Shown one piece after another: positions 2,050 to 9,070 of a stretch of DNA of 53,351 nucleotides (position 1 is the stretch's first letter; every line of letters starts with the position of its first letter). The position numbers and the translations under genes are program-made. Where the stretch lies: assembly GCA_016182105.1 (NCBI GenBank), contig JACOXZ010000001.1, forward strand, positions 1 to 53,351, given 5' to 3'. Below the pieces are notes generated by a model. It was not told where the DNA came from and did no database searches. It saw only the letters and a list, made by a program, of their open reading frames with translations. The stretch is from Candidatus Liptonbacteria bacterium. GTDB lineage: Bacteria > Patescibacteriota > Minisyncoccia > UBA6257 > 2-01-FULL-56-20.

Positions 2050-2149
2050 AACTTCTTCTTGTTCTTCTTGGATTATAACAATTTCCTTTGTAAATTGGGG
2101 TTTTGTTGAACTATCCACGGCTCATCCCCAAATAATCCAGTTTTTGGTG

Positions 2150-2178
2150 TTGACGCCGTTTTTACTATGCTTTATCTT
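2150..2178 (+). promoter_or_regulatory. Sigma70-type promoter for the candidate large ncRNA
   Basis: TTGACG (2150-2155), 17 nt spacer, TATCTT (2173-2178). Confidence 0.65.
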
Positions 2179-2203
2179 AAAATCAGTCTTTTGAAATCGA
2201 CGT

Positions 2204-2718
2204 GAGTGGTGGAAGTGTTTGCTGGGTCCGTAAGAACTCATCAGAACCCTCTTGGGAAGTCATTCCCTACGTGAGGCGCGAAGCCTAAGATTATATCAAG
2301 GGTCTCTCGCTAGAGGGTATACCAGCTCGCCTACTTGGATTGGCTGCTTTAAATGGCAATTATCCTAATGACCCGTATGGTCATCTGGGTAATGCCGGTT
2401 CTCAGCTGGTGCCTAGTCTTTTTTTCAGACGGACACGGAAAGGCGAAAGCCAAGTACTGACTCTGACTGACAAGGGAGACGAAACGGCTAAGTAGCGGCT
2501 TCAAAACCGCGAAAAGCCAATGAATGGCCAGGGCAAAATGTGGGTACGGTAAAATAGCTACCGGGGACAGCTATTTAAGCCCAGATGGGAAATACCGAAG
2601 GGAATTTGTTGCCGCAACAAAAGCGGCCGCTAATTCTTTGAGTTGCCTGCCCCTTCAACAAGGACGGGCAACATAACTTCGTTATTTCTATAACGCCCAT
2701 GGCAAACACCTACTACTC
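2204..2718 (+). ncRNA. Candidate large ornate structured non-coding RNA, class unassigned
   Basis: No ORF >=60 aa. The 5' end (2204-2226) pairs with the 3' end (2696-2718), including G-U pairs that fix the + orientation. More than 10 internal helices, a GAAA tetraloop and AGUA/GAA loop-E motifs. Flanked by a promoter and a terminator. Confidence 0.8.
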
Positions 2719-2724
2719 TCATCT

Positions 2725-2763
2725 AGACCCTGAAAACGCGTGAGCGTTACGGGGTCTTTTTTT
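2725..2763 (+). terminator. Rho-independent terminator after the ncRNA
   Basis: AGACCCTG...CGGGGTCT stem followed by a T run. Confidence 0.75.
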
Positions 2764-2774
2764 ATCCTCAAAAT

Positions 2775-4055
2775 TTAAAAAAGCGTTTTTTGCTTCGGCA
2801 AATCTTCAAAAATCTTTATTTTTCCGTATTCGCCGTCGTAGCCAGGCTCGATCTTGATCCCACCCACTCTTACGCGGCGAATGCCTTCGGCGACAACATC
2901 ATCAAGAGCGCCTAAATCCTCGACTCGAGCGTCAAGTAGAACACCAAATTCCGAACCAAAGACCTGAATAAATTTTTCATAACTCTGAAGTACTGCTTTA
3001 GTGCCCACTTTCTGACCCCTGGCTTCGGCTATAATTTCCTCAAGCGGCACGAGGTTTTTAAAGGGCGTGTAAAAAGGCGGTTTATAGCCCGCTCCTCTAT
3101 CAGCTAGACTTGCCACTCGATTCATCACGCCGATTGTGACTGGCCGTCCGCAAGACCTACATATCCCTTTTTGGGCAGCTGTCTCTTCTGGCGAATAAAC
3201 CACTTGGTGCTGGCGGTGGCCATCATAATGATATTTCCCTTCCTCGGGAAAAAACTCGATTGTAAAAGCCAGCTTAAGCTTGGCTCCACTATCTCTTTTT
3301 TCGCTAAGCGCCTTGGGCGAAGCGTTTTTGATCGCTTGGAAAATAGCGCGGTAAGAAAGCTCATCCCCCTCAAAGGCGTTCGCTTCCCTCCCAAGCTTTG
3401 GGAGCGAATGCGAATCCGAATTCGAGATCAACGCCACCTTATCGAGCTGGGAAAGGCGCCAATTCATTCCCGGGTCAGACGAGAGACCGGTTTCAATGGC
3501 AAAAATTTTTGGCGTGAGTTCTTCAAAACATTCTTCGAGCGAATCAAAACCGGATTGCGAACCGAAGACCGAAAACCACGGCGTCCAAGCGTGGGCCGGA
3601 ATGACGTAAGCTTCTTCCGAAATAGTACTCACAATTTTTAGGAGCTCTTTGGAGTCGAGTCCTAAAATCGGACGGCCATCGCTTTTCAAGTTGCCTATCC
3701 AGCCAAGTTGTATGTTAATCTGACGCACAACTTCGAAAGACGGCGCAAAAACCAAATTATGAACCTTGCGCACCCGACCGCCCTTGGAATAAATGCTCGA
3801 GATCTCGGCAGTTAGCATAAACCTCGTGGCTTTGAGATTTTTCTCTTCGGAATTTAGCACAAAAAGACCGGCCTCGGAGGCCGGCATGAGTTTGCGCTCG
3901 AGCTCTAAAAACCACTGGGGATGAGTGAAGTCGCCGGTACCTAAAACCCTAATGCCTTTTTTTCTCGCAGAGAGGTTAAGCTCTTCCAAAACCATCCGGC
4001 TTGAGGTGGCTCTTGAGTACTTAGAGTGAAGCTGAAGGTCAGCGATAAAGCGCAT
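2775..4055 (-). CDS. PHP-domain phosphoesterase / endonuclease Q-like protein with Zn ribbon
   Basis: DLQLHSKYSRATS, GTGDFTHP, PAHAWTPW, ETGLSSD, SNSDSHS, GKYHYDGHR, CxxC and PGYDGEYG motifs. Confidence 0.85.
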   Translation of the reverse strand: MRFIADLQLHSKYSRATSSRMVLEELNLSARKKGIRVLGTGDFTHPQWFLELERKLMPASEAGLFVLNSEEKNLKATRFMLTAEISSIYSKGGRVRKVHNLVFAPSFEVVRQINIQLGWIGNLKSDGRPILGLDSKELLKIVSTISEEAYVIPAHAWTPWFSVFGSQSGFDSLEECFEELTPKIFAIETGLSSDPGMNWRLSQLDKVALISNSDSHSLPKLGREANAFEGDELSYRAIFQAIKNASPKALSEKRDSGAKLKLAFTIEFFPEEGKYHYDGHRQHQVVYSPEETAAQKGICRSCGRPVTIGVMNRVASLADRGAGYKPPFYTPFKNLVPLEEIIAEARGQKVGTKAVLQSYEKFIQVFGSEFGVLLDARVEDLGALDDVVAEGIRRVRVGGIKIEPGYDGEYGKIKIFEDLPKQKTLF

Positions 4056-4698
4056 CGGTTGGCTTTGTGCCTTGAACTAGGGGGTCAGTTATGGTTTTTC
4101 TCGGCAAAACCAGTTCTGGAGCGAGGAGCAAGATAAAAGCTGAGGCCAAGGTGAGAATCGCGGCCGCAATAAAAACCGGCTGGAAACCAAAAAATTTGGC
4201 GGCTATCCCGCCTAAAAAACCGCTCACTCCCGCCGCGAGTCCGGCAACGGTCGAGTCAAGAGACCAGTCAAAGGAAACCCTTTCTTTATCTAAATGCCTT
4301 GAAAAAAGAGAGGACCACGAAGGAACGTAGAGGGCAAAACCAATGGCTTGGATAATTTGAACGAGATATAGCTGCCACACTCTATTTATAAGACCGAAAG
4401 AAAAAGCAGCGAGCGAAGCAGTAAAGAGGCCGATGATCAAGGCGTAGAAATCATCTTTTTCGCCGGGTTTTTTATCTAAAAAATTCGCTATCGGCAGCTG
4501 GAGAAGCGACTTCAAAATCCAGTAAATAGAAGCTGCGGCGCCTACCGTAACCAAGGTTGCGCCCTGAACTTTTTCGATCACAAAAATCGAAAATATCGGA
4601 CCGATGAGCCCCCAGCCAGTTAAAAGTGCGAGATCGGCAAAGATCAAATACTTAATCCAGCGGTTGATTTTGAGATTAACGGTGATTTTTATTTTCAT
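4039..4698 (-). CDS. MFS-type transporter, single ~6-TM half
   Basis: About six hydrophobic segments with an MFS-like loop (ANFLDKK) after TM2. 219 aa. Confidence 0.75.
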   Translation of the reverse strand: MKIKITVNLKINRWIKYLIFADLALLTGWGLIGPIFSIFVIEKVQGATLVTVGAAASIYWILKSLLQLPIANFLDKKPGEKDDFYALIIGLFTASLAAFSFGLINRVWQLYLVQIIQAIGFALYVPSWSSLFSRHLDKERVSFDWSLDSTVAGLAAGVSGFLGGIAAKFFGFQPVFIAAAILTLASAFILLLAPELVLPRKTITDPLVQGTKPTDALYR

Positions 4699-4759
4699 GC
4701 CAATTTTGCCTAACCGAGCACATAATATTTTAGTTTATGTGCTCGGTCAACCAAGCCCT

Positions 4760-7288
4760 TCATACCTCGGTTTGGAACTCGAGCTCCTCTCCACGGACCA
4801 CTACCTTAACCCGGCTCCCCCGAACAAATTCTTTCTTCAAGATCCCCTGAGCCAGTGGGTTTTTAACTTTGTCTTCTATAACCCGGCGAAGCGGCCTGGC
4901 GCCCGAAGCCGGATCATAGCCCCACTTGGCAACGAGTTTCACGACTTCGGAGTCAAAGGTAAGAGTGATGCCTTGCGAGGAAACAGTCTCGGCTAAATCT
5001 TTGAGGTTTAAAGCGGCGATTTTTTGAACATCAGGCGCGGATAAATCTTTAAAGATGATGATTTTCGAAAACCGGTTCAGGAGTTCAGGACGAAAAACAT
5101 CAGTGAGTTTGCGCTTCAAGTACTCCGCGATCTGGGTCATTGTCTGTCCCTGCTTTAAAGATTCGTTGATTATGTCTGAGTGGGCGTTTGAGGTGGCAAT
5201 CAAGATCGTGTTTTGAAAATCCACTACCCGGCCCAAGTTATCCGTGAGCCGGCCATCGTCAAAAACCTGAAGAAAGAGATTTAAAATGTCAGGATATGCT
5301 TTTTCAAACTCGTCAAGAAGAATAAGGCTATAGGGCTTTTGAAGCACGGCTTCAGTGAGGCTGCCCGTGATCTTGCCGTCTGGCGAGCCGATGAAGCGAT
5401 AAAAACTTTGCTTATCTTGATATTCGGTCATATCAAAACGGACCATTAAGTCTTTTGAACCGAACTGGATCCCGGCCAAGATCTTCGCTAATTCGGTCTT
5501 CCCGACCCCGGTTGGCCCCACAAAAAGAAAAGAAGCAATAGGGCCGCCGGGACGCGAAAGGCCGCTGCGGTACGCCCGCAAAGCATCGCTTACAGCCTTC
5601 ACAGGCTCATCCTGATCAATTAAACGTTCGTGGATAATAGCCTCGAGATTCAAAAGCTCTTTGGCTTCTGATTCTTTGGCTTCATGAATCGGGATATTAA
5701 CCTTTGCCTCGGCTGCTCTAATCACCGCGTCCGGCCCCAAGAACTTCTCGTCCCTACGGCTCGCCTCCACGACCGCGCTCTTCAAGAGCTCTTCAGCGCT
5801 TGCAGGTAAAAATTTATTCCTGAAGTATTTTTTGGCGAGCTTCACCGACTTTTTCACGGCGCCGAAACTAATCACCATTTTTGAATTCTTCTCTAAAATC
5901 AAGCTCTCATAGACCAGGAGTTTCTCGGCCTCCTCTTCGGTGATTTCCTCAACGCGAATGATTTCAAAAATTCCCACGAAATCGCTCCGCGGCTCCAAAT
6001 ATTCCTTGAATTCCCTGGGGTAGGTCGAGCCAATAAAAGGAAAAGAATTATTCATAATAATCGGCATTAAGGCGTCGGCCGCGGAAAGATAGGCTGTACC
6101 CGAGGTCTTCACTAAATTATGGATATCGGGGATGTAGAGGATGATATTGCCGGCAATATTTATCTCTTCCACAAGGGCTTGGAGACGGCTGTGGAGCTCG
6201 TGAGCGGCGGCGCCTGCGACAATGGTCGAAAGTTCCAAGGCCACCAATCGTCTGTCAAAAAGAGGTTTGGGTACGGCGTCTTTTATAATCTGGAAGGCCA
6301 AGCGAGCCACGAGCGTCTCCTTGCCGATCCCGGCTTCGCCAATTAAGAGGGCGTTCGGGTTCACTGGACGAGAAAGAGTGTCAACTAGACGCTCGTATTC
6401 TGTTTCATGGCCAACAAGAAAACCGATCGCTTGGCGCCTGGCTAAATCCGTAAAGTCCCGGCTAAAGCGATCAAGAATGGGCGTGGGTCTCGAAGTCCAG
6501 GCTCGGTTCATTATGCGGTGCCTAAGCTCCCTTTCTCTCTCAAACATAAAGCCGCCCAAGGAAGCGGGAAGACGCTTGAAGTGGGAAAATTGCCGTTTGG
6601 CGGTTGTAAAAATCAAGGCTTTGCCCAGGTCGCCGGAGACAATCCCGAAAATATTAAAAAGCCGCAGAACAAACTCGTCCTTCATAAGCGGCAGGACCGA
6701 AAATAGATCAGTTGGCCCGATAAAACGATGGCCATTGCTTAGGGCGTGTTCAAAAGCTGAAGTTATAAGGGTTTGGGCGGCTAAGAGAAGCGCTTCTTTT
6801 CTGATAAGTCCCCCTGGCTTCCGGCTCTTAGGCAAAAACTCTTCTAATTTTTGTTTGAACTCTTCGGGGTTCACGTCAAGACGTACTAGACCCTCTTTAA
6901 TGTCCGGCGACCTCGAAAGCTGCATCCCTAGTTCCAAGAAAAAACTCTGCTCCGTTAGACTGCTTCGATCAAAAGCTTTCTCGAGGCTCGAAAAAGCGCG
7001 AGGCGTAATGAAGCGCGCCGTGTTTACCTTCCCGCCTTTGGGGAGTTCGTTAAACGGCCTGTCAGCTTCGCGAAAATGGATAAAACGATCTATGAGAAAT
7101 AAAACCAGGAAAACTCCTAAGGCGCGAATCGGCCGAAGATCTGACACTAAAGAGGTGAGGGCTAAAGCCACCAAAACCAAATGACTAACGTAGCTTAAAA
7201 CTCTGACCAAAATACGGCCAAAAAAGGTCATCTTTAGCCGCGGTTCGACAAACGAAAGCTCGTACACTCTAGAAACCTCGGAGGGCAT
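4760..7288 (-). CDS. ClpA/B/C-family AAA+ ATPase with N-terminal transmembrane segments
   Basis: Two AAA modules (GEAGIGKE; GPTGVGKT...LLDEFEKA...FRPELLNR, GARPLRR) and two hydrophobic N-terminal helices. Confidence 0.9.
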   Translation of the reverse strand: MPSEVSRVYELSFVEPRLKMTFFGRILVRVLSYVSHLVLVALALTSLVSDLRPIRALGVFLVLFLIDRFIHFREADRPFNELPKGGKVNTARFITPRAFSSLEKAFDRSSLTEQSFFLELGMQLSRSPDIKEGLVRLDVNPEEFKQKLEEFLPKSRKPGGLIRKEALLLAAQTLITSAFEHALSNGHRFIGPTDLFSVLPLMKDEFVLRLFNIFGIVSGDLGKALIFTTAKRQFSHFKRLPASLGGFMFERERELRHRIMNRAWTSRPTPILDRFSRDFTDLARRQAIGFLVGHETEYERLVDTLSRPVNPNALLIGEAGIGKETLVARLAFQIIKDAVPKPLFDRRLVALELSTIVAGAAAHELHSRLQALVEEINIAGNIILYIPDIHNLVKTSGTAYLSAADALMPIIMNNSFPFIGSTYPREFKEYLEPRSDFVGIFEIIRVEEITEEEAEKLLVYESLILEKNSKMVISFGAVKKSVKLAKKYFRNKFLPASAEELLKSAVVEASRRDEKFLGPDAVIRAAEAKVNIPIHEAKESEAKELLNLEAIIHERLIDQDEPVKAVSDALRAYRSGLSRPGGPIASFLFVGPTGVGKTELAKILAGIQFGSKDLMVRFDMTEYQDKQSFYRFIGSPDGKITGSLTEAVLQKPYSLILLDEFEKAYPDILNLFLQVFDDGRLTDNLGRVVDFQNTILIATSNAHSDIINESLKQGQTMTQIAEYLKRKLTDVFRPELLNRFSKIIIFKDLSAPDVQKIAALNLKDLAETVSSQGITLTFDSEVVKLVAKWGYDPASGARPLRRVIEDKVKNPLAQGILKKEFVRGSRVKVVVRGEELEFQTEV

Positions 7289-8996: not shown

Positions 8997-9070
8997 CGCC
9001 CTCGGGCAGACTCGAACTGCCAATCTTCGGCTTCGGAGGCCGACGTTCTATCCAGTTGAACTACGAGGGC
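8997..9070 (-). tRNA. tRNA-Arg(CCG)
   Basis: GCCCTCG/CGAGGGC acceptor stem, D arm TAGTTCAACTGGATAGAAC, anticodon arm TCGGC-CTCCGAA-GCCGA, T loop GTTCGAG. CCA is not encoded. Confidence 0.96.

Follow-up and report, generated by a model that had tools for sequence, protein, structure and literature searches.

Does the long gap between the genes for a family X DNA polymerase (polX) and a PHP-type nuclease in the genome of a Candidatus Liptonbacteria bacterium carry a gene of its own, and if so, what would its product be? The gap resides in a 53,351-nt stretch of contig JACOXZ010000001.1 (assembly GCA_016182105.1), hereafter called the window, and an earlier note made from the bare sequence had described it as a spacer free of open reading frames (ORFs) that holds a large, ornate noncoding RNA (ncRNA). 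We conclude, with a confidence somewhat above even, that nucleotides ~2186-2764 of the plus (+) strand represent a stand-alone gene for a structured ncRNA of ~575 nt that belongs to a family not in Rfam, acts in trans and is carried by one clade of bacteria.

The first indication comes from the strength of the predicted fold. Nucleotides 2185-2765 of the + strand reach a minimum free energy (MFE) of -214.4 kcal/mol, compared to a mean of -173.8 kcal/mol (standard deviation 6.7) for shuffled versions. This corresponds to a z-score of -6.07, and 0 of 100 dinucleotide shuffles folded as well, an outcome that bears out the expectation of the earlier note, which had named shuffled controls as a check. 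Among 19 other 581-nt segments of the window, z-scores range from -1.89 to +0.91, versus -6.16 for the candidate. The RNase P RNA and the transfer-messenger RNA (tmRNA) of the same genome score -5.92 and -4.70, respectively. Because the candidate is an outlier relative to the 19 background segments and is level with the host RNase P RNA, the fold signal is real and matches in strength the signals of established structured RNAs from this cell.

The predicted structure consists of an 18-bp closing helix, P1, and six domains inside it, in a closed body of 515 nt whose helices mostly have pair probabilities above 0.9. P1 is formed by a 5´ strand (2204-2223) and a 3´ strand (2701-2718) that pair as 2204-2212/2710-2718 and 2215-2223/2701-2709 with probabilities of 0.91-0.99, and these strands are also evident as an inverted-repeat pair (2203-2222/2702-2721). 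Domain 1 (2246-2318; probability 0.89-0.97) comprises helix 2246-2252/2312-2318 around two hairpins, and domain 2 (2321-2410; 0.78-0.99) is a long hairpin assembled from helices 2321-2327/2404-2410, 2337-2344/2394-2401, 2359-2365/2387-2393 and 2368-2373/2379-2384. Domain 3 (2416-2480; 0.97-1.0) is an irregular long hairpin with the tip GGC-GAAA-GCC at 2442-2451 and a GAAA/AAGUA internal loop beneath this tip. The domain 4 hairpin (2486-2518) includes an AAGUA/GAAA internal loop between the outer helix GGCU/AGCC (2486-2489/2515-2518), an alternative from the earlier note that was adopted in our search model R1, and the inner helix GCGG/CCGC (2495-2498/2507-2510; 0.79). Domain 5 (2541-2583) is a hairpin with helices 2541-2545/2579-2583 and 2552-2559/2569-2576, and domain 6 (2588-2689; 0.90-1.0) is composed of the stem 2588-2600/2677-2689 and hairpins 2601-2637 and 2642-2672.

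Much of this architecture had been anticipated. Both parts of P1 (2204-2212/2710-2718 and 2215-2223/2701-2709), the tip of domain 3 and helices 2246-2252/2312-2318, 2254-2258/2263-2267, 2321-2327/2404-2410, 2359-2365/2387-2393, 2368-2373/2379-2384, 2611-2615/2623-2627 and 2642-2649/2665-2672 had all been proposed, and each is present in the MFE structure with a probability of ~0.8 or more. Both helices of domain 5 had also been proposed and are in the MFE structure, but they reach probabilities of only 0.56-0.58. In contrast, a proposed CGTTAT/ATAACG helix is replaced by the domain 6 stem (0.90-0.95), and the pairings AGGC/GCCT and TGGG/CCCA fall outside of the MFE structure. For the suggested pseudoknot, the 7-mers 2302-2308 and 2474-2480 are perfectly complementary, but their pairing would compete with helix 2416-2424/2472-2480, which has a probability of 0.97.

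Two internal loops wherein AGUA lies opposite GAA(A) are located at 2438-2456 and 2490-2514, and the second of these resides within the most conserved block of the region. From this sequence pattern, we take both to be putative sarcin-ricin/loop-E-like motifs. Motifs of this type are platforms for RNA-RNA or RNA-protein contacts.

The second line of evidence is conservation in near relatives. Parts of the stretch are contained in 20 public runs from 12 studies, and four of these runs (X5, X6, X7 and X15) were compared by using pieces with at least 80% likeness. DNA contigs from lake water (X5) and from groundwater (X6 and X7), which derive from three other studies, cover polX, the whole RNA region and the nuclease gene, which encodes a homologue of endonuclease Q (EndoQ). 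The contigs of X7 span both junctions, namely polX-RNA (2027-2258) and RNA-EndoQ (2524-2789). Differences from the reference number 46 of 532 positions in the RNA region versus 111 of 891 in flanking polX and EndoQ coding DNA for X5, 28 of 423 versus 77 of 490 for X6, and 67 of 739 versus 45 of 376 for X7. The RNA region therefore diverges by 6.6-9.1% (~91-93% identity) and the flanking coding DNA by 12.0-15.7%, in a comparison that is rough due to the 80% likeness filter and to the possibility that pieces come from several organisms. Because a noncoding stretch diverges less than its coding neighbours, these sequence comparisons indicate that the RNA region is under purifying selection in near relatives.

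The positions of the listed changes are also informative. Unpaired nucleotides account for 14 of the 26 listed substitution sites, compared to 34% of the bases in the body (binomial p 0.03). At 12 paired sites, seven changes keep the pair on the + strand by converting it to G-U, or G-U to A-U: 2427 A>G, 2431 G>A and 2451 C>U in domain 3, 2579 G>A in domain 5 (U-G to U-A, in all four runs), and 2596 C>U, 2604 A>G and 2632 A>G in domain 6, which are retained as G-U pairs. The most conserved block extends from 2472 to 2518, and none of the four runs has a listed substitution between 2467 and 2562. The domain 5 loop (2560-2568) is variable, with substitutions and a 2-nt deletion, and no change is listed in its stem.

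Among the 12 indels listed, five are isolated and lie in or directly beside a loop or bulge, and seven rebuild the distal part of hairpin 2642-2672. This cluster includes the inner helix 2652-2655/2660-2663, and X5 carries 16 additional bases beyond the 8-bp basal stem. In the area of domain 1, X6 has 29 additional bases within 2216-2360 together with three substitutions, and X7 has 22 within 2229-2327 together with one substitution. Collectively, the variants look like those of an RNA whose structure is conserved and whose stem tips vary, as judged against the modelled fold. A separate observation is that one X5 contig joins position 1977 to 2802 and omits 824 nt, including the whole RNA region. 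One side of this contig matches over 48 nt at 80% likeness, and the contig probably derives from a different organism in which the conserved motifs of polX and EndoQ also occur.

As had been claimed for the spacer, we find no ORF of note within it. Stop codons occur throughout the interval 2119-2774 in all six frames, and the longest ORFs under translation table 11 are 50-51 amino acids. The polX ORF as listed begins with GTG at 2118, and an in-frame ATG at 2047-2049 corresponds to residue 24. Because most polX proteins of relatives align only from query residues 19-31 (three partial matches excepted), the true start is likely the ATG at 2049, in which case the noncoding stretch would likely comprise 725 nt (2050-2774). 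The indels of relatives point in the same direction, because their sizes (-1, +1, -1, -2, +1 and +16 in X5, +29 in X6 and +22 in X7) include no multiple of three and break the frame. Two further coding interpretations were rejected. Translation table 25 opens a 107-aa frame (2353-2676), but this alternative code is ruled out by the frame-breaking indels and by the EndoQ gene, which ends with TGA at the same place where its homologues terminate. Likewise, a decayed gene finds no support, since the MFS and ClpB proteins that precede polX in relatives yield only tblastn noise in 2000-2900 (best E 0.17).

Which strand is transcribed? Four features favour the + strand. First, the + strand is more stable than the minus (-) strand by 21.6 kcal/mol; the latter reaches an MFE of -192.8 kcal/mol and a z-score of -4.78. 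Second, G-U pairs that have strand-symmetric pairs on both sides number three on the + strand and zero on the - strand, and the internal G-U pairs of P1 (2208-2714 and 2211-2711) become C-A mismatches if the - strand is read, as had been recognized when the closing helix was proposed. Third, the body is followed by an intrinsic terminator, predicted previously for 2725-2763, in which a nested hairpin (2725-2757; probability 0.95-0.98) with a GUGA loop precedes seven U residues, so that the element extends from 2725 to 2764 on the + strand. The hairpin on the - strand has no U run after it. A simple terminator scan with a loop limit missed this hairpin, since the nested stem exceeds the limit. 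Fourth, the GAAA and GUGA tetraloops and the AGUA/GAA loops are legible on the + strand only, with the tetraloops reading UUUC and UCAC on the - strand. Because of this stability, z-score, G-U pairing, U-tract terminator and set of tetraloops, we consider it quite probable that the + strand is the RNA strand.

The sites at which transcription would start are less distinctive. A sigma-70-like promoter candidate, TTGACG-17-TATCTT, does exist on the + strand at 2150-2178, as the earlier note had stated, and it matches 9 of 12 consensus positions. The sole change listed for it in contigs of relatives is at 2156, in the spacer. Regarding expression, a 207-nt contig from a groundwater metatranscriptome of another study (X15) covers 2472-2600 with four differences. 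It is composed of two opposed, overlapping pieces, one (2472-2509) with no differences and the other (2486-2600) with four differences in the opposite orientation, and we infer that self-primed cDNA gives rise to artefacts of this fold-back type. The flanking genes and the remainder of the RNA are without cover in X15, which is not evidence either way, and five additional RNA runs (X16-X20), each with ~3 of 65 sampled words, were not counted as evidence.

Several points weigh against the interpretation of this locus as a + strand gene. The promoter match is at chance level, with one such site per 900 nt and a mean of 1.2 in shuffled sequences, and the X15 contig is a hint of expression rather than proof, because the presence of a contig in an RNA library establishes neither that the locus is transcribed nor from which strand. 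Five of the 12 listed changes at paired sites break a + strand pair, hidden compensation aside: 2380 G>A and 2393 U>C in domain 2 of X5, which do so unless compensated in rows that are not listed, 2459 G>C and 2462 U>C in domain 3, and 2695. Four of these five would be wobble pairs on the - strand, and the listed variants are about even with respect to strand, with the new state pairing at 7 of 12 sites on the + strand and 6 of 12 on the - strand, in a count that is biased by its use of a fold predicted from the reference + strand. The variant counts include listed changes only, with a further 82 pieces, 198 substitution rows and 41 indel rows outside them, and the tally of variants against the predicted + strand fold is a partial table rather than an alignment or a covariation statistic. 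Furthermore, the ClpB, MFS, EndoQ and polX genes are all on the - strand, and thus read-through would yield a - strand RNA too. Finally, RNAs with basic cellular roles are not usually restricted to one clade, as the candidate seems to be (described below).

Some of these points would fit an arrangement in which the - strand is functional, and the region is a structured intercistronic segment or a polX 5´ leader within a clpB-mfs-endoQ-polX transcript. Such an element might control the processing, stability or translation of polX after an insertion cut off the genes formerly upstream of it. A scan of 2000-2900 on the - strand yielded no sigma-70-like promoter that could serve polX, and read-through from EndoQ is plausible given that the hairpin after this gene lacks a U run on the - strand. 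The - strand fold is also far above shuffles in stability. However, this fold is the weaker of the two, and it would leave the U7 terminator that faces the + direction without a role, disrupt P1 and forfeit the tetraloops and AGUA/GAA motifs. In addition, the folded body lies 85 nt away from the beginning of polX, or 155 nt away given a start at 2049, and is not linked to the start codon by any fold. We therefore regard a - strand element as unlikely, and retain a + strand gene as the preferred explanation.

How did this gene come to reside between polX and endoQ? Orthologues of polX are present in 27 of 40 relatives (E <=1e-30), and each is directly preceded by another gene. Of 25 upstream proteins extracted from these relatives, 16 match the MFS gene of the window (4054-4770) and four match ClpB. 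The 28 polX loci from the 27 relatives have no ORF-free gap of at least 150 nt adjoining polX. Because all 28 loci lack this stretch, comparison with relatives indicates that the conserved ClpB-MFS-polX array has been interrupted at 2119-4038 by a recent insertion of 1.9 kb, which includes the RNA region and endoQ. The RNA is therefore not an old gene, as might be understood from the earlier remark that it is kept in a reduced genome of the candidate phyla radiation (CPR), and its occurrence in one clade only points the same way. No convincing direct or inverted repeats bound 2119-4038.

Searches for homologues outside of the near relatives were negative. BLAST of the RNA against the 40 relatives gave no match; the GTDB genus consists of this genome only. 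Against 400 genomes of the order, BLAST gave one 22-nt match (G193, E 0.004), which is due to chance. We also used model R1, which describes the core (2414-2530) from a single sequence, such that distant homologues could escape it. R1 had no match in 124 other genomes of the family, and gave one marginal match each in 150 genomes of the order (G240, 24.6 bits) and 150 genomes of the phylum (G548, 25.6 bits). Both were rejected as chance matches, since they lie inside long ORFs of 284 and 583 amino acids, respectively, and imply many non-canonical pairs. An exact 20-mer from the core is absent from all GTDB species genomes and from the metagenome collection, blastn found no match in phages or plasmids, and three exact core patterns found none in viral contigs. 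The homologue search foreseen in the earlier note thus recovered near relatives in public runs, but nothing in the samples of the family, order and phylum or in phages and plasmids.

The RNA likewise does not accompany its neighbours elsewhere, although polX and the PHP nuclease had been put forward as possible conserved partners. None of the 28 polX loci of relatives carries it, and RNA-like sequence is found beside none of the EndoQ genes present in 7 of the 40 relatives. Among the closest 80 EndoQ loci listed across GTDB, the best R1 scores are 12.5 and 11.3 bits (E 2.8 and 5.5), with nothing from nhmmer or blastn, and the 80 listed metagenome loci with homologues of the polX N-terminus (<=62% identity) gave 10.9 bits (E 5.4) with R1 and one 15-nt blastn match; closer relatives of EndoQ or polX may lie beyond these listed matches. 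A role as a general companion of EndoQ or polX is ruled out by the RNA-free loci among those listed. From these searches, the RNA probably occurs only in a single genus-level clade, whose members come from groundwater and lakes.

The insertion and the narrow distribution would also be expected if the RNA belongs to, or is a remnant of, selfish or foreign DNA that arrived with endoQ, for example a phage or plasmid RNA or a decayed intron-like sequence, and has real structure but does not serve the host. For ROOL and GOLLD, two known large RNAs, prophages are frequent carriers, which adds to the appeal of this idea. Yet no match is found in phages, plasmids or viral contigs, the insertion has neither repeats nor inverted ends at its bounds, no Rfam intron matches, and no integrase, reverse transcriptase or other mobile gene adjoins the RNA among the ORFs of the window searched with Pfam. 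The absence of the RNA from the EndoQ loci noted above is also at odds with joint travel, and its lower divergence relative to flanking coding DNA implies ongoing selection in a genome of 588 kb. On balance, we judge this origin somewhat less likely again than a - strand element.

An even less favourable assessment applies to the proposal that the region is non-functional spacer DNA derived from the insertion, whose fold arises by chance or composition. Its very narrow distribution, the mere hint of transcription and the unproven covariation are compatible with such a spacer. However, chance or composition would not readily generate a z-score near -6.1 against dinucleotide shuffles amid a background of -1.9 to +0.9, nor lower divergence than neighbouring coding DNA in three other studies, nor indels that are either isolated at loops and bulges or devoted to rebuilding one hairpin tip. 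The retention of 725 noncoding bases in a 588-kb genome also speaks against a spacer, and so we find this explanation very improbable.

If the stand-alone RNA is functional, does it belong to a known family? A scan with 4227 Rfam families, another of the checks named previously, identified only a tRNA (8997-9070) at gathering score in the window, and lax filters with E <=10 gave nothing other than noise of 10-18 bits at the locus. ROOL (RF03087) and OLE (RF01071) have no match in the whole genome at E <=1 or at the locus at E <=10, in searches for which the control genomes offered no positive control, and GOLLD, a family expected in Rfam, has no row in the scan. The sole genomic match to RNase P RNA (RF00010) lies at C21:31952-32303 (93 bits, E 1.1e-29, full model), and none is found at the locus, in agreement with the earlier statement that the RNase P GAGGAAAGUC core is lacking. 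The tmRNA (RF00023) is encoded at C4:7973-8294 (137 bits), and ARAGORN finds no tRNA or tmRNA in 2000-2900, which upholds the exclusion of tmRNA. Group II intron families also have no match at the locus at E <=10, consistent with the reported lack of a domain V. The only candidate hairpin for a domain V (2642-2672) carries 16 extra bases in X5, and group II domain V has a fixed length. One candidate, Rfam RT-3 (full-length alignment, 10 bits, E 3), was rejected because 2563 G>U, together with the 2579 G>A change that all four runs share, breaks its implied pairs and preserves the MFE alternative. The suggestion of a ROOL/GOLLD/OLE size class or a new class therefore holds for size, noncoding nature, structure and the lack of an Rfam match, but not for membership in ROOL or OLE.

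The RNA for the signal recognition particle (SRP) is absent from the locus, and models RF00169 (E <=10) and RF01854 (E <=1) find none in the genome. RF00169 also finds none in 21 genomes from nine families of the order (the host and 20 relatives), and the control genomes were matched. The SRP RNA of this lineage is either too divergent for the model or missing. A near-match of 17 nt, within which an 11-mer is exact, links the core of the candidate to the host RNase P RNA.

A very divergent member of a known family (RNase P-like, SRP or 6S RNA) that Rfam models fail to recognize is the least credible explanation, with only a slim chance of being correct: the undetected SRP RNA, the 17-nt near-match and an overall plan that resembles RNase P RNA in its long closing helix and several domains would suit it, but no family exceeds 18 bits even with lax filters, the host has its own RNase P RNA and tmRNA, all 20 relatives without a detectable SRP RNA also lack the candidate, which is thus not a lineage substitute, 7 of 200 shuffles reach the RNase P similarity, and an essential housekeeping RNA is not expected in a genus-specific insertion.

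Three side observations concern other RNAs and gaps of this genome. The host RNase P RNA falls just under the Rfam gathering score of 100, and so would be missed by standard annotation at the gathering threshold. Two ORF-poor stretches of ~1 kb, at C26:18715-19765 (L213) and C11:1-977 (L215), have z-scores of -9.0 and -12.0, respectively, with no Rfam or tRNA match. L213 has palindrome arms of 20 nt, twice repeated, and L215 has perfect arms of 23 nt and 18 nt; such long perfect or near-perfect palindromes alone may explain their z-scores. A repeated noncoding family, unrelated to the RNA at 2186-2764, occupies ORF-poor gaps at C15:3092-3693 (L220), C5:21184-21743 (L224), C6:10011-10581 (L226), C19:9735-10741 (L214) and C15:13504-14106 (L219). 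L220 shares 72.5% identity over 262 nt with L224 and 85.7% over 70 nt with L226, short exact matches join L214, L219 and L224, and L214, L220 and L224 have no Rfam match (E <=0.1).

The neighbouring genes have clear identities. On the - strand, polX (310-2118) is confirmed by Pfam domains DNA_pol_B_thumb, HHH_8, HHH_5 and PHP. The gene on the other side (2775-4055), also on the - strand and convergent with the RNA, had been called a PHP nuclease, which is right in kind: its product matches PfuEndoQ (PDB 5zb8) over its full length (residues 5-423, E 2.3e-51). The match to TIGR00375 (E 2.7e-52) scores 178 bits, below the model cut-off of 326.6, and no Pfam match is found. A fragment-sized MFS transporter gene (4039-4698, - strand; Pfam MFS_1) is of the kind that lies directly upstream of polX in relatives, and the MFS and ClpB genes are intact at 4039-7288. 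Regarding EndoQ, a second, separate copy of its C-terminal domain (residues 363-419) with 44% identity is present in another gene at C18:1999-2181, near the contig end, and ORFs that adjoin EndoQ orthologues match the EndoQ C-terminus only. The EndoQ motif region 2812-2855 has a very high depth from many organisms in public runs, and the orthologue of one relative of the same order (G030:C42:765-1967) has three in-frame TGA codons, which may reflect a different genetic code or a broken gene.

How might a stand-alone RNA of this type function? Transcription would begin a few bases past the -10 element (2173-2178) and end at the hairpin and U7 terminator (2725-2764). P1 would join both ends of the transcript, with six domains radiating from it, two of which are predicted to carry AGUA/GAA-type internal loops beside GNRA-type loops. 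Because no gene lies downstream of the RNA on the + strand, it would act in trans rather than as a cis regulator, perhaps as a stable, compact fold that serves as a scaffold for protein partners or as a self-assembling ornate RNA like ROOL, GOLLD and OLE. The RNA may have reached the lineage within the 1.9-kb insertion together with endoQ, and purifying selection would keep it there.

The literature that we searched, supplementary files aside, describes neither a large structured RNA from CPR bacteria nor one beside endonuclease Q. To our knowledge, very few bacterial RNAs exceed 500 nt in length, rRNA excepted. The candidate probably represents a new family of a known kind, namely large structured bacterial ncRNAs whose function is not known. 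More tentatively, and with rather less than even confidence, we propose that it is the first representative of a novel class of large, compact RNAs of ultra-small groundwater bacteria, horizontally acquired and under selection, that operates as an RNA machine or scaffold by assembling with itself or by docking a protein or tRNA via its two sarcin-ricin-like loops. If true, a new large RNA in a 588-kb genome with little spare DNA would be well worth a structure determination, and it would make a case for asking what role large RNAs have in episymbiotic, reduced bacteria. Its value is limited by a narrow clade that restricts covariation analysis and by neighbours that give no functional clue.

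Comparisons with known systems help to place this RNA. Structured 5´ leaders and riboswitch-like elements are similar in that the candidate is strongly folded and lies between two genes of a co-directional array, but it matches no Rfam riboswitch or leader, and its better-folding strand is opposite to the genes and has its own terminator. Moreover, known riboswitch aptamers are far smaller than the 515-nt closed body. Type A RNase P RNA also has a long terminal helix around a multi-domain fold, has a similar z-score (-5.9 versus -6.1) and shares the 17-nt stretch. However, no covariance-model match is found at the locus, the genome has its own copy elsewhere, and the shared stretch is marginal. 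With regard to sarcin-ricin/loop E (bulged-G) motifs, both AGUA/GAA(A) loops adjoin a short helix and loop, but they are recognized by sequence pattern alone, and the first (2438-2456) has its strands in the reverse order relative to the rRNA sarcin-ricin loop.

The closest parallels are with the large RNAs noted above. ROOL, GOLLD and OLE form homo-oligomeric, RNA-only complexes, as determined by cryo-electron microscopy according to one report (PMC12286853). The candidate differs from these three RNAs, for which oligomers are known, in that it matches neither the ROOL nor the OLE model, is seen in no prophage context, lies 6 kb from the nearest tRNA gene (8997-9070) and comes from one genus-level clade of a small-genome groundwater lineage. 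Nevertheless, it falls in the size class of ROOL and OLE, whose models have 574 and 616 positions, respectively, and like ROOL, GOLLD and OLE it is a noncoding RNA of many domains that appears to have a stand-alone gene.

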